A stretch of DNA of 64,000 nucleotides. It comes from an uncultured archaeon (lineage in GTDB: Archaea; Asgardarchaeota; Thorarchaeia; Thorarchaeales; Thorarchaeaceae). Shown in pieces: positions 12,014 through 20,357 of the stretch. Numbering within the stretch: position 1 is the first letter of the stretch; each line of letters starts with the position of its first letter. The stretch is from positions 10,980 to 74,979 of the forward strand of contig CAYYQL010000011.1 in the NCBI GenBank assembly GCA_964473825.1, in the 5' to 3' direction. Both the position numbers and the translations under genes were made by a program. The notes beneath the pieces are model-generated. The model was not told the origin of the DNA, made no database searches, and worked only from the letters and a program-made list of their open reading frames with translations.

Positions 12014-13819
12014 CTACTCGTCTTCTTCGTCGGGCTCCTTGGGGTTAATTATCTCCTCAAGCTCTGCTAAGGCATCATCATCCACAGTATGGGGGCTATC
12101 GCCCTCGGTTTTGTCATTGGGAGGAGGAGTCTTGTCATCGAGGAGACCCAAGATTCTGTCTAAGTCATGAAGCTCATCTTCGGCAAGTTCATCAGGAGTC
12201 TCAAGTTCTCTTCCGTTCGGGGTCACAGTTTCTTCGCACTTCAACGCATCTAGAGCCGTATCGAGGTCATCGGGATCTGAATTGTCTATCTCCGCACTGA
12301 TTATGTCATCTGCATCTAGTTTCTCAGAAAGGAGCTCCTTGACCAGGTGCATCTCATCAGTTTCCGCTCGGGGGGGTATCTCGCTTGTTTCCTCCATCTC
12401 GGGTTCGGAGGGTACTTCGACGGATATGTCTTCCATTTCGCTTTCGTCTTCGACCTCAATCTCGAACTCTTCGTCAGGAGCCTCAGATGGAGATTCTTCC
12501 TCCTCTTGCACGGGAATTATCTCGTACTCGTTCTTGGCTTCGGATGCAGCCTCGGTCTCTTCAACGAGAACTAGCTCGGTCGATGATGCGCGTATCGGCT
12601 CTGCGATGTCTTCGGAAGCAACAGTTTCATCCACACCCTCTTCAACCTCCTCTTCCTCGGCGCCCTCTTCAGCAACCTCGAAATCTGCCGTGGGTCTTGA
12701 AACAGGAGGCTCATCCATCCCCTCATCAGGCTCTTCAACTTCAAGTCCCTCCTCACCCTCTTCGACCTCCACCTCCTCAATGAGCTCGTCGATTATCTCG
12801 TAATCATCTGTGTCCTCAATGATATGACCCTCCTCGTCGACATACACCTCTTCAACGACCTCAACCGTTTCGTATTCTTCGTCCTCATCTCGGCCTCGAA
12901 GGTCCACCTCGGAGGCCTTCTCAGCGGCCTCATCGCTGAATTTCAAGAGTTCGCGTGCAGGAAGGTCCGGAAGGACTACTCCGACATACTGCGCAGCAGC
13001 ATTCATCAGAATCCGCAGCATCTCATCACGGCGTTCTTTGTCAATGGCCACCATGGGGTATGTTGGAATTCCCAAGATCTTTTGAACTACCTCGGGATTC
13101 ATTGCATTCGGTTTGTCTTGCTTGTTGGCAAGCGCAAAGATTGGAACCTTTGGGGCGTCACGACGGATCAGCTTGAGTATGTCCTTACTGATGATGACAT
13201 TCCTTAGGGTAGAATCGCATACCAAGAAGATCACATCTGCACCGTGGAAGTAGAAGCGCCAGAGTGTTCTGAAACGTTCCTGGCCAGCGAAATCCCACAA
13301 GACCAAGCTGTAGTTGCCAAACCGTATGTTCTCGACAGTTTCCAGGTTCAGAGCTATGGTGGGCACGTACTGCTTCGGAGGGGTATCTCCAAGTAACAAA
13401 TGCAGCGTTGTCGTCTTTCCGACACCACCTTCCCCCACAAGAGCAATCTTTAGACGCGTAGTCACTGAGGGCTCGATGAGAGATTCATAGTGCTCAATCA
13501 GCTTGTCTAGACCCTGTTTTTCAAGGGTTCTCCGTAGTGACTTAACTGCATTTTCCATGCGTTCAAAGATTGAGTGTTCATCCTCACTAGTATCAGTGAC
13601 GAATACCAAGAGAAGGTCTTTGACTAACTCATGACCGTGATATTTGTCATCCCCGATGATCAGGGGAATCTCAGACATCGAACTATCAGCTGACCGTAGA
13701 TCGGACCTGGTTTCAACGAACTCTGTAACTTCTTCTGACAAGACCTGCACGGGCCAATACTGGGTCGAGGCAAGTACTTTGTTGTTGGAAACACGGACCA
13801 GGAATGTATTATGAATCAA
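12014..13819 (-). CDS. Longin-like domain + Arf/Rab-like small GTPase + long acidic disordered tail
   Basis: GEGGVGKTT, YVPTI, WDFAGQERFRTLWRFYF, ANKQD; N-terminal ~120 aa with a longin-like beta/alpha pattern; C-terminal ~320 aa dominated by E/D/P. Confidence 0.85.
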   Translation of the reverse strand: MIHNTFLVRVSNNKVLASTQYWPVQVLSEEVTEFVETRSDLRSADSSMSEIPLIIGDDKYHGHELVKDLLLVFVTDTSEDEHSIFERMENAVKSLRRTLEKQGLDKLIEHYESLIEPSVTTRLKIALVGEGGVGKTTTLHLLLGDTPPKQYVPTIALNLETVENIRFGNYSLVLWDFAGQERFRTLWRFYFHGADVIFLVCDSTLRNVIISKDILKLIRRDAPKVPIFALANKQDKPNAMNPEVVQKILGIPTYPMVAIDKERRDEMLRILMNAAAQYVGVVLPDLPARELLKFSDEAAEKASEVDLRGRDEDEEYETVEVVEEVYVDEEGHIIEDTDDYEIIDELIEEVEVEEGEEGLEVEEPDEGMDEPPVSRPTADFEVAEEGAEEEEVEEGVDETVASEDIAEPIRASSTELVLVEETEAASEAKNEYEIIPVQEEEESPSEAPDEEFEIEVEDESEMEDISVEVPSEPEMEETSEIPPRAETDEMHLVKELLSEKLDADDIISAEIDNSDPDDLDTALDALKCEETVTPNGRELETPDELAEDELHDLDRILGLLDDKTPPPNDKTEGDSPHTVDDDALAELEEIINPKEPDEEDE

Positions 13820-14911: not shown

Positions 14912-14953
14912 TGGGCTGGTATGTCCCGATTATGAAGTAGTGTACCTTGAGAA

Positions 14954-15229
14954 GGATGCTTGTTTAGGAGCGGGGTTCGCCAGGCCGAAGCCTGAAGAGG
15001 CGAACCTTCCGCATCCGTCAGGTCATATAGACCAACCCAACTACAAGGCGCACGAAACAATATAGAATGCGCAAGTTTGCAAGGGAATCTTGCAAGGGGA
15101 CCAATGCTGGAAACTCTTTTTTTGGGACCAATATTGCGAATGCGAGTTTCCGACGGGGAAATTCGAACGCCCTATATTTGAGCTCTCGAAGTGCGGAACT
15201 CGAAACGAATTCGGAACCGCATCATTCGC
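14954..15229. ncRNA. Candidate structured non-coding element(s), family unknown
   Basis: Several hand-identified helices, including a C(UUCG)G tetraloop hairpin on the minus strand, inside a 555-nt gap with no credible ORF. Confidence 0.35.
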
Positions 15230-15466
15230 AGCACAGCCATTGTATATGAATCTTGTTAGTTCTCAGGCTCTGTGTGAAAAGTCGACGAAAGGACAAGAAT
15301 TAGAAACATTCACACTATACCGTGCACGAATCTCAAAGGCGTCATCGCTTTTTGTGACCGTAATAATCCATGGTTGATGAGTTTTCATACAGCGCCTAGT
15401 TCTCAGATACACGTAAGGCACAACATCTCACCCATCCGAATTCTGATAGAACCAGACAAGAAACAT

Positions 15467-16606
15467 CTAGCGGGGGAAATTGTCACGTAGTAACCTTAGA
15501 TGTTGATGAACCATTTCACGAGCTCGTGAGTCGTCAGGTGTTTTCTCAAGCTCGGTGATAAGGTCTTGGAGGAAGTACTCGGGGAAGAATAGCCGCACCC
15601 GGATGTCGTTAAGCAGAAAGAGCCATTTGTCAAATTCTCCAGAGGGGCCCTTTCGCCTCTTCTCGGAGATCACACGGTATTTTTTCAGATTCTCAATTGC
15701 AGCTCTGAGCTCTTTGGGGGGAATGCCAAGCGACGCTTCCAATTCTGCCACACTTACTGGGCGGGTTCGGACTTCTGTCAAGACATCATAACAATCTGGA
15801 TCTGCAAGAATCTCGGCTATAGCCACCGTATCTTCAGGTGTTTTGGTCCATTCGGTAAGAAACTCAAGAACCTCAGCTTTGTATTGGGCAGCCAACTCAG
15901 GATCAAGAATCTCAGTTGAGGACTCCATGGCCGTCAGGGGTGGTGCTCTGAACACTTCAAGGTCCTTTATCATGAAGACACAGGTTCGCCCAATCTCGTC
16001 GACCCACTCGCTTTTCACCAAGCCCAGCTCCTCAAATGGAGAGAGTATCGAGTCAACACTTACACTGGGAAGGCCCGTGACCATCTTGAGCCACTCTTCA
16101 AGATCCTCTTTGGAAATACCACCCTTCCAGAGCTTTGGAAATACCGCACGAGATACCTCGTCATAGAACAAGCGCGCCAAACGGCTCTCATCGGTCATTC
16201 CCGCAAGGCGAATTATCCGACGATAGGTGTTATCAAGTTCTTCCTTGAGTTCGTCATCCGTCATGGATATGACTGCATTTGTGATGGGAGAAACAACAGA
16301 TGTGATTGCAGCCTCGTATGTCTTGGGATCCTCTGATGGAGTCAGTAAGAGAGAGATACAGTACTGCTCCTCTTCTCGTACAATTCCTGTATAGTAGGAT
16401 GCGACATTATATTCCTCACCGCCAATTCGAATACTGAGCGTAGAAAATCCCGCGGCGGCATCACCCATCGCGTGAGAAGTAAAGATTCTCATGGCTTCGG
16501 TGTTCAAATCTTCGCGATAATAGTCCGCGAAATCATCCGGCACTTTCGCCTTCAGAACGGCACCAATCTTACTGTCCCAATCGATTAGGAGCATAGCAAC
16601 GGGCAT
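15467..16606 (-). CDS. uDENN/longin + tandem winged-helix protein (NPRL2-like architecture)
   Basis: N-terminal LLIDWDSKIGAVLKAKVPDDF fits the uDENN/NPRL2 start pattern; two wHTH-like segments (ISKEDLEEW...FEELGLV; VSVAELEASLG...LKKYRVI). Confidence 0.6.
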   Translation of the reverse strand: MPVAMLLIDWDSKIGAVLKAKVPDDFADYYREDLNTEAMRIFTSHAMGDAAAGFSTLSIRIGGEEYNVASYYTGIVREEEQYCISLLLTPSEDPKTYEAAITSVVSPITNAVISMTDDELKEELDNTYRRIIRLAGMTDESRLARLFYDEVSRAVFPKLWKGGISKEDLEEWLKMVTGLPSVSVDSILSPFEELGLVKSEWVDEIGRTCVFMIKDLEVFRAPPLTAMESSTEILDPELAAQYKAEVLEFLTEWTKTPEDTVAIAEILADPDCYDVLTEVRTRPVSVAELEASLGIPPKELRAAIENLKKYRVISEKRRKGPSGEFDKWLFLLNDIRVRLFFPEYFLQDLITELEKTPDDSRAREMVHQHLRLLRDNFPR

Positions 16607-16723
16607 CTTCTTCTTACTCCCGGTCCCTTAGAGGCCTTGTCAGAGGGGGGTATTTCTCAATAGGATGCATGTTGTCTATCTAAAAAAGCTTGTCACTTTT
16701 TCGACCGCGAATCAGATTTTCCA

Positions 16724-17377
16724 CTAAACAACATGACCGGATAGCTCACGGCGAATCTCTGAAAGAATCTTCGCTACTACCTGTTGCAGAGGCTTCGTTG
16801 CATCGACAACGCAGTAGTTTGCTTCGTCTTCACGACTCATCTCGAGGTAGGCCTGACGAACTTCGACTAACCGATCAAGATGTTCGAACTGCTTGTTTGT
16901 TTCACATCCCCGGCCACCTATACGGTAGAGGCCTTCTTCCGCAGGTATATCTAGAATGAATACGATATCGGGCTCGGGTGGAGATATTTCCACACGGTTT
17001 CTGTGTAAGATAGCTTGCCAAGGAATACCGGTACTGACGGACTGATATGCTCCAGTGGCAAAGTAATACCGGTCCAATATGATGATCTTGTTCTGTCGAA
17101 GTGCAGGACGAATTCGTTCCTTGATGTGCCACTGACGGTCCTTGATGAAGAGGTCAAGCTCCTCCTCTGGGGTCAGTTCTCCTTCAGGTGACCTCCTCCG
17201 TATCTCCTGCCCCCACTGACTCTCATCTGTCGGCTCTCGTAGACGTATATTCATGAAACCTTCTGAGGTCAGTTCTTCAGACAATCTATCTGCAACAACC
17301 GTCTTGCCGGCACCGTCGATGCCTTCTAAGACGAAGAGGAACCCTCTGTCCAGTTGCTTGTAGTCCTCATTATTCAA
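16724..17377 (-). CDS. tmk: Thymidylate (dTMP) kinase
   Basis: VLEGIDGAGKT, REP, LF.KDR, ILDRY, AYQ, PDIVFILD. Confidence 0.95.
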   Translation of the reverse strand: MNNEDYKQLDRGFLFVLEGIDGAGKTVVADRLSEELTSEGFMNIRLREPTDESQWGQEIRRRSPEGELTPEEELDLFIKDRQWHIKERIRPALRQNKIIILDRYYFATGAYQSVSTGIPWQAILHRNRVEISPPEPDIVFILDIPAEEGLYRIGGRGCETNKQFEHLDRLVEVRQAYLEMSREDEANYCVVDATKPLQQVVAKILSEIRRELSGHVV

Positions 17378-17518
17378 TCAAAGTCACCGCAACAGCAAGA
17401 AACAAGGATGTCGCAAGCCTGAAGGTTTTAGGTTCTTCGGTGAGAAGATTCCAGCCGATAAAGAAACATCTCCAAAACGTATATCTTTGAAGCAATTACT
17501 ATGTGCTCATAGGACTTG

Positions 17519-17746
17519 AAGGGGACGTAGTGTCTGAATGTCAATAAGGCGCCTTCTGGGGGAGAATCAATCTCCGTCGAATGGAAAGTCGTCTGGGTGG
17601 CTCTCTTCAAGAAGAAATTGCGAAACAAACTTGCCATCGCGTTCGTTCTTAACTTGGTCCCCTTGCAGAGTTATCCAATCCGGCGACCCATATTCCGAAA
17701 GGCGCCTAATCGATGACATTCGCCACGAAGACCAGATTTTTGGCAA
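17519..17746 (+). ncRNA. Candidate novel structured RNA (~230 nt)
   Basis: Nested helices span the whole element, with G-U pairs favouring the + strand and two extra long-range complementarities. No match recognised to SRP, RNase P or 5S RNA. Confidence 0.5.
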
Positions 17747-17801
17747 CGGTAATGCTTAAATTCAGTATGAAGAGGTTGTAGGTCAACCAATCCTACAACT
17801 G

Positions 17802-19718: not shown

Positions 19719-20357
19719 TTGCACTGGAAAGACATCCTCATTGGACTCTCGGAGCCAGCAGACGGACGGGTGCCCCCCGTCTTTAAGCCGTACCATGCAG
19801 CTGTTGCGGTTATCATGATTGGCAGGCGCCAACCTCTTGGAAGATATGAGCTCTGTGAGAATATGTCAGTGGGTGAGGGCAGCGTGAGAACACTCCTGAA
19901 GAGGCTCTCAGAGAGCGGCCATATCGCTCCAGAAGGGAGGCAGGGACAGAAACTGACAAACACCGGAAAGAATCTCTTCGAGAATATGATCCATGATATT
20001 CCTTTCGGACTCTTTCTTGATGTAGGAAAGTTGACCGTATTCGAGTATTCCTTCGCCAACGTTGCAAGGGACAAGGCGGAATCAGTAACCGACGGAATAA
20101 GGCAGAGAGATGAGGCGATCATCCAAGGCGGAGCAGAAAGCGCAGGTGCAACAACACTCATCATGAAAGATGGGCTCCTCGTCATGCCACCTGATGATTT
20201 CAATACTCTCGGAGCGTATCCCGAGGAAACCCTTCTCATAACTGAGAGCCTGAAACCGCAAGAGAACGATGCAATAGTGATAGGATCCGCAGACAATAGA
20301 AATCTTGCAAGGGAGGTCTCAATGGCTGCGGTCATGACTCTGTTTGAAGTTGATTGA
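19719..20357 (+). CDS. Conserved archaeal wHTH protein (DUF2111/DUF4443-like)
   Basis: PLGRYEL...VGEGSVRTLLKRL, GIRQRDEAI..GA..ATTL, DAIVIGSA. Confidence 0.75.
   Translation: MHWKDILIGLSEPADGRVPPVFKPYHAAVAVIMIGRRQPLGRYELCENMSVGEGSVRTLLKRLSESGHIAPEGRQGQKLTNTGKNLFENMIHDIPFGLFLDVGKLTVFEYSFANVARDKAESVTDGIRQRDEAIIQGGAESAGATTLIMKDGLLVMPPDDFNTLGAYPEETLLITESLKPQENDAIVIGSADNRNLAREVSMAAVMTLFEVD

Follow-up and report, generated by a model that had tools for sequence, protein, structure and literature searches.

C-rich seeds are known from RoxS and FsrA of Bacillus subtilis, two of the C-rich-seed small RNAs (sRNAs) of the Firmicutes (PMC8464778), which serve as a precedent for the RNA described here. 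Both are stand-alone noncoding RNAs (ncRNAs) in which an exposed C-rich motif is complementary to a G-rich ribosome-binding region, and RNA-A, an element of the analysed window (the whole 64,000-nucleotide stretch of DNA), resembles them in these respects. It differs from them in being archaeal, longer, and more rigid, in carrying a G-rich tail of its own, and in having only a candidate target; sequence or structure homology to RoxS and FsrA is absent. RosA, a sponge RNA of B. subtilis (PMC8464778), and RNA-A are alike in their size of about 200 to 225 nt, in having their own promoter, and in containing a G-rich complement to a C-rich sRNA. However, RosA, to which RNA-A is likewise not homologous, pairs over 10 to 15 nt with a proven effect (PMC8464778), whereas the pairing of RNA-A covers 6 to 10 nt, is backed by neither energetics nor co-evolution, and involves an RNA that itself holds the C-rich motif.

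Cobalamin riboswitches (RF00174 and class II; PMC6158498) are comparable to RNA-A in size, in their location upstream of putative corrinoid-uptake genes, in a loop-loop style pairing, and in a T-loop-like motif. Unlike them, RNA-A obtains no model score, has no conserved B12 box and no pairing with a ribosome-binding site or terminator, and is followed by a separate downstream promoter. The 6S, SRP, and RNase P RNAs share with RNA-A a single-copy, stand-alone gene, a length of 180 to 340 nt, and a long closing stem; 6S RNA is set apart by the lack of a 6S score for RNA-A and by the head of the latter, which is a multiloop rather than a central bubble. Overall, RNA-A is an uncatalogued family of folded ncRNAs of ~210 to 230 bases, restricted to some Thorarchaeota (Asgard archaea), which, as judged from its sequence, most probably controls, via short base pairing, either a gene in its neighbourhood or a sibling RNA.

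Gene, promoter, and distribution of RNA-A

The structured ncRNA gene, recognized by its homologs, covariation, lack of an Rfam match, and lack of a conserved open reading frame (ORF), extends over positions 17509..17725 of the plus strand; the 5' end, at about 17507-11, is deduced from the promoter-like box, and the 3' end is uncertain, at about 17710-40. It lies within the 425 nt that separate the divergent gene for thymidylate kinase (tmk; 16724-17377, minus strand) from an operon whose products are DUF4430, an unknown protein, a protein that weakly matches ECF-S, and a winged helix-turn-helix (wHTH) protein of the DUF4443/PH0730-like type, and it is present in a single copy in the 3.27-Mb genome carrying the window. 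Another gene of the window (12014-13819, minus strand) encodes a protein in which a small GTPase domain is joined both to an N-terminal domain and to an acidic tail of very great length.

Every sequence motif quoted in an earlier note on this DNA was found in its place. That note had left a choice between a divergent cobalamin-responsive leader and an independent, undescribed ncRNA, and the latter reading is supported by a promoter-like box of its own, covarying homologs, and the outcome of the Rfam comparison, in which neither the element itself nor the four homologs scanned matched a known family. No match was obtained with the family models of RNase P RNA, SRP RNA, tRNA, and tmRNA, and the genuine RNase P and SRP RNA genes of this genome are located on other contigs. 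An ORF is not conserved, as the frames of the homologs range from 5 to 60 codons and are broken by frameshifting indels, and no description of RNA-A was found in the literature on Asgard ncRNAs and on this locus. As expected for archaea, a scan for bacterial promoters and terminators yielded nothing. A BRE/TATA-like promoter at 17473..17485 (plus strand) is recognizable in the homologs as an A-rich stretch and a TATA-like box, with the 5' GGGA motif about 34 to 42 nt further downstream in 28/28 homologs examined; the TATA-like box noted earlier near 17480 (17480-85) is kept in all of these. RNA-A is predicted on these grounds to be an independent transcription unit without a conserved ORF, and we regard it as highly probable that it represents a stand-alone, single-copy, plus strand ncRNA gene with its own archaeal promoter. 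On the opposite strand, a strongly conserved 16-nt promoter-like motif (17425..17440, minus strand) precedes tmk in most Thorarchaeota and is probably an extended BRE/TATA element or a factor site.

Homologs detected with a covariance model occur in single copy in 27 of the 86 genomes of the window's Thorarchaeota family, distributed over 6 of its 16 genera, and the model found none in 118 other Asgard genomes, which represent 24 other families of the phylum. A motif search had retrieved 19 genomes with zero control matches before the covariance model raised the number to 27; a weak model match in genome G054 (E 0.037) was rejected, as it looks coding and is devoid of RNA-A motifs. The spacers between tmk and DUF4430 fall into two sizes, mostly about 125 to 150 nt or about 415 to 580 nt, and the long ones are those that hold RNA-A. 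In a 17-mer scan of metagenomes, 5 of 35 matches were true RNA-A homologs, all in the same gene context; the same scan of viral contigs gave one match, attributable to chance, so that RNA-A was not found in viral contigs. The carriers are scattered on a two-gene tree (6 changes), on which a single clade of carriers is not rejected (p-AU 0.09). In genome G009 (L208, around 750-900), an RNA-A homolog has an IS-like end in place of its 5' half; this truncated copy is likely a pseudogene and shows a way in which RNA-A can be lost.

Conserved fold of RNA-A

In the consensus, a linker joins the G-rich 5' tail to a long interrupted stem that contains a bulge of 3 nt; the stem leads via an internal loop into a multibranch head, for which a pyrimidine-rich junction and a single-stranded GGUCCCC are predicted. 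Specifically, the closing stem (17546..17707, plus strand) consists of a variable outer helix, the side hairpin 17561-75, and the helices 17581-84/17688-91, 17588-91/17684-87, and 17593-98/17678-83. The 5' strand of the internal loop (17599..17617), defined by alignment and a pentamer scan, contains a T-loop-like pentamer in every RNA-A homolog and, in other genera, a C-rich CCCAUG block that has diverged in the window. The core domain (17618..17668), with the conserved pyrimidine-rich junction at 17639-48 and one or two variable hairpins, is closed by helix 17618-23/17663-68. Readings of parts of the molecule as an Sm-like site or a K-turn were dropped, the former not being conserved and the latter having no G-A pairs.

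In a sequence-only alignment of 22 homologs, the four helices (18 pairs) are 98.2% paired, and 9 pairs, amounting to 33 cells, have changed on both sides. At most 1/500 shuffles matched these pairing and double-change values, slid controls were paired to 30 to 43%, and a model-fitted alignment gave the same picture. Kinship can inflate such counts, yet the changes recur in different genera. All nine double-sided changes fall within the three inner helices of the closing stem, in which 97 to 100% of the cells are paired; the core helix 17618-23/17663-68, absent from the earlier list of stems, is 98.5% paired and nearly invariant, and its formation is consistent with the data, but no covariation speaks in its favour. 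The plus strand assignment made earlier is borne out by 13 G-U versus 3 A-C combinations in the three helices, together with the position of the promoter.

The minimum free energy fold of the window sequence reproduces the nested stems that had been listed for it, but only some of them survive comparison with the homologs. Helix ATGG/CCAT (17581-84/17688-91) is kept with compensatory changes. The same applies to the 17588-91/17684-87 part of the stem drawn at 17588-93/17682-87, the inner register of which is altered; likewise, the stem drawn at 17594-604/17667-77 is a helix with compensatory changes, but the homologs favour the partner of 17593-98 to be 17678-83 and not 17672-77. The side hairpin 17561-75 is kept in genera g1 and g7 but only there, the inner helices CAAG/CTTG and AAGAA/TTCTT fit the window's genus only, and neither of the two same-genus homologs has the outer helix 17536-43/17714-21. 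Taken by itself, folding energy is weak evidence for RNA-A: the window sequence folds only slightly better than its shuffles (z = -1.77), 9/200 of which were as good, and plus strand z values over 18 homologs range from +0.4 to -4.6.

Proposed seed loop, probable sibling RNA-B, and candidate target

The alignment reveals a near-invariant 17-nt block (17656..17672, plus strand) with the GGUCCCC loop, which lies outside the consensus helices and is the proposed seed. Its counterpart is the G-rich 5' tail (17511..17526), the GGGA core of which occurs in all homologs (as GAGGA in one) and which, in genera g7 and g9, folds into a small hairpin with a GGGA loop. Pairing of tail and loop, proposed earlier as the first of two pseudoknots, is possible in 23/23 distinct variants with 5 to 11 bp, reaching 8 or more bp in 19 of them and only 5 to 6 bp in four. 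Two loop substitutions preserve the pairing as G-U, but none of the 23 variants contains a double-sided change, because both strands are nearly invariant; this pseudoknot can thus form throughout, but compensatory changes do not attest it. The second pseudoknot (17631-36/17741-46) is absent from both same-genus homologs. The 11-mer at the start of the 17-nt block occurs in the window's genome only in RNA-A and in a second RNA, RNA-B; it is also found in the RNA-B of two genera without RNA-A, and a third conserved complement of it is not evident across the family.

RNA-B (14965..15235, minus strand) is a structured sibling RNA with two GGUCCC boxes (15124-46 and 15089-104), ~2.4 kb upstream of RNA-A. 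Its strict pattern was found in at least 62/86 family genomes; its folding z is -3.69 (14930-15400), and it has no match in Rfam. The two RNAs are alike in the genome-unique 11-mer, in flanking the same gene pair, in having their own promoters, and in the short common blocks CGCRUUCG, GGUCCC, and GAGUUC, which occur in the same order. They are unlike in distribution, family-wide for RNA-B and patchy for RNA-A, in the number of boxes, at least two versus one, in the position of the tail, at the 3' end versus the 5' end, and in the long stem of RNA-A. RNA-B is the best non-self match of the RNA-A profile, but a weak one (E 1.1 genome-wide; 8.1 without the window's genus); taken together with the ordered blocks, it is likely that the two RNAs are paralogous. 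The idea that they are mutually antisense was rejected, and the shared motifs are same-sense, since the promoter-like box of RNA-B is on the minus strand. The 3' tail of RNA-B can pair with CCGUC as well as with CGCAU, two separate internal segments, which may give a double pseudoknot, and strongly diverged forms of RNA-B occur in genera g2 and g12. Just upstream of its promoter, a 131-bp MITE (15266-15396) has been inserted; it has terminal inverted repeats, a target-site duplication of 9 bp, and six copies in the genome, and the closest relative lacks it at this position.

The candidate target lies between the two RNA genes. A gene for a 379-aa protein (15467-16606, minus strand) has a conserved GGGACC directly before its Shine-Dalgarno (SD) sequence (16617..16629, minus strand); GGGAC(C/T) occupies this position in 20/24 genomes with RNA-A and in 16/25 without an intact copy (36/49). 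The start of this gene ranks 5 of about 2,800 start regions for complementarity to the RNA-A loop, a rank that is based on rough gene calls and is not blind, the gene having already been picked as a candidate. All but one of the cognate duplexes of RNA-A with the 379-aa leader are better than the mean random start region; in genera g7, g9, and g15, complementarity is modest (percentiles 3 to 57%). Across the genome, start codons show no enrichment of GGGACC, and co-evolution was seen for none of the pairs loop-target, tail-loop, and tail-RNA-B, for which no matrix was better than 15 of 120 permutations. Moreover, RNA-A does not explain the GGGACC site, because the site is kept in genera without RNA-A. 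The 379-aa protein, 80 to 88% identical across the family and thus unusually conserved for a protein without a family name, has only weak, C-terminal wHTH matches, falls into unnamed Atlas clusters, and is predicted with a poor pLDDT of 52.

Complementarity of RNA-A to 16S, 23S, 5S, RNase P, and SRP RNAs is limited to scattered matches of 8 to 10 nt. In these rRNAs, 13 nt near position 2405 of the match in the 23S sequence of genome G010 (L233) are exactly complementary to consensus RNA-B box 2, probably by chance, as they are not conserved in two other 23S sequences; near position 2600 of the G010 match lies a hairpin-like insertion of 30 nt that the two other Thorarchaeota 23S sequences lack. 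The 16S rRNA matches of two Thorarchaeota genomes (L230 and L231) span 2.3 to 2.4 kb compared with 1.5 kb in a third, which suggests introns or large insertions.

The main reading is that RNA-A is a self-masking, trans-acting base-pairing sRNA, a sibling of RNA-B, that acts on the leader of the 379-aa gene; we assign it a probability of roughly 0.4. The long stem would present the single-stranded GGUCCCC seed, which would pair with GGGACC just upstream of the SD sequence, and the pyrimidine-rich junction may lengthen the duplex across the purine-rich spacer and the start codon, so that translation would be blocked. Pairing of the G-rich 5' tail with the seed could provide a built-in off switch, lasting until the tail is displaced, trimmed, or bound elsewhere. 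In favour of such an sRNA, the alignments show the covarying stem, the conserved promoter, independence from the operon, the near-invariant loop, the 11-mer common to RNA-B, and the shared blocks; the conserved GGGACC by the SD sequence, rank 5, the better-than-mean duplexes, and the universal tail-loop pairing appear supportive. Against it, a seed of 6 to 8 nt does not call for a rigid 200-nt fold in which many positions are invariant, and there are the missing co-evolution, the modest complementarity in g7, g9, and g15, the lack of genome-wide GGGACC enrichment, and the weak similarity of the two RNAs. A wider proposal, in which RNA-A, RNA-B, and the GGGACC leader box form an RNA-only circuit with a common seed that controls the gene in between, the anti-seed tail of RNA-A masking itself, sponging its sibling, or linking oligomers, is doubtful.

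Rival functions and the cobalamin-leader question

Somewhat less probable than the base-pairing sRNA, at about one chance in four, is a structural RNA that binds proteins or self-assembles. The blocks in common with RNA-B would then be protein sites, RNA-A would be a paralogous scaffold or decoy, and tail-loop pairing may be intermolecular and lead to dimers or rings. Such a role would account for the many invariant single-stranded positions, the conserved 3-nt bulge, and the T-loop-like pentamer of all homologs (a motif of 5 nt and, as such, weak evidence), and it agrees with the finding that no trans-pairing of RNA-A co-evolves. The tail is typically 10 to 20 nt away from a stem of 21 to 41 bp, which presumably makes for a long intramolecular reach. 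However, no RNA-binding gene travels with RNA-A, and no partner protein was found.

A sponge function as in RosA (PMC8464778), by which the G-rich tail would titrate the GGUCCC boxes of RNA-B and relieve the targets of the latter, is possible at slightly longer odds. The tail is complementary to these boxes, RNA-B accompanies RNA-A in every sampled genome, and in genus g3 a deviant tail (GGGGAU) is matched by a correspondingly altered second box of RNA-B (AUCCCC), but three g3 sequences keep GGGGAC. Co-folding of the two RNAs stays within about 1.4 sd of that with shuffled RNA-B in every genome tested and is worse than with shuffles in half, cognate tail-box pairs are no better than noncognate ones (35 and 15 of 120), and the tail has a competing loop within RNA-A itself.

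It is improbable that RNA-A is a tRNA-sensing or ribosome-related mimic, T-box-like or L1-stalk-like, with the T-loop-like motifs binding the tRNA elbow and GGU pairing with the CCA end. The pentamer points in this direction, as does a stretch of 10 nt that matches, in the same sense, the L1-stalk region in the 23S rRNAs of two Thorarchaeota, but by our estimate chance alone would yield about 0.7 such 10-mers. T-box, RNase P, and rRNA-family models gave no score, there is neither a specifier nor an expression platform, the U before GGU is not conserved, and the gene context is wrong for a T-box.

Even less probable is a divergent riboswitch for cobalamin or another ligand that leads the DUF4430 / ECF-S operon. 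This reading could draw on DUF4430 as the next gene 3' of RNA-A in 21/26 genomes with visible context, on the weak ECF-S match downstream, and on the switchable pseudoknot and the T-loop-like motif. Against it, the operon is equipped with a TATA box (17754-63) and a palindromic operator (17777-97) of its own (together 17754..17797, plus strand), which are separate from RNA-A and conserved at almost every Thorarchaeota locus, whether RNA-A is there or not; the second TATA box, seen earlier near 17755, is thus real but serves the operon, which favours an independent RNA. In the remaining 5/26 genomes, RNA-A and DUF4430 are uncoupled, and RNA-A is followed by DUF4443 or by 2.3 to 2.5 kb of other sequence. 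The cobalamin covariance models gave no match at RNA-A at E <= 10 and none in the four homologs at E <= 5, and the best RF00174 match of the genome, with 12.7 bits, is not at RNA-A. The supposed B12 box at 17722-33 and the T5 run at 17737-41 are both absent from the same-genus homologs, and RNA-A has no overlap with a ribosome-binding site and no conserved terminator. The cobalamin-leader reading fails because of the operon's own TATA box and operator, the five uncoupled genomes, and the negative RF00174 result: RNA-A is not a cobalamin leader and very probably no vitamin B12 sensor.

The operator 17777-17797 stays before the gene of the DUF4443/PH0730-like wHTH protein (19719-20357) when DUF4430 moves away, and this protein may therefore be the regulator acting at it. 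Two close copies of the operator exist elsewhere in the genome, and its likeness to the IdeR/DtxR box (PMC8464063) is only loose.

A mobile-element remnant, a MITE, or a small-protein gene, suggested by the patchy distribution and a ~70-codon open frame in the window's genome, can be dismissed almost entirely, as RNA-A is present once per genome at a syntenic site without terminal repeats or target-site duplications, unlike the true, six-copy MITE 2.1 kb away, and the frame is not conserved and RNA-A was not found in viral contigs.

The result averts a false annotation of RNA-A as an "archaeal B12 riboswitch" and offers in its place a covariation-supported Asgard RNA with a defined seed, an anti-seed, a sibling RNA, and one candidate target.
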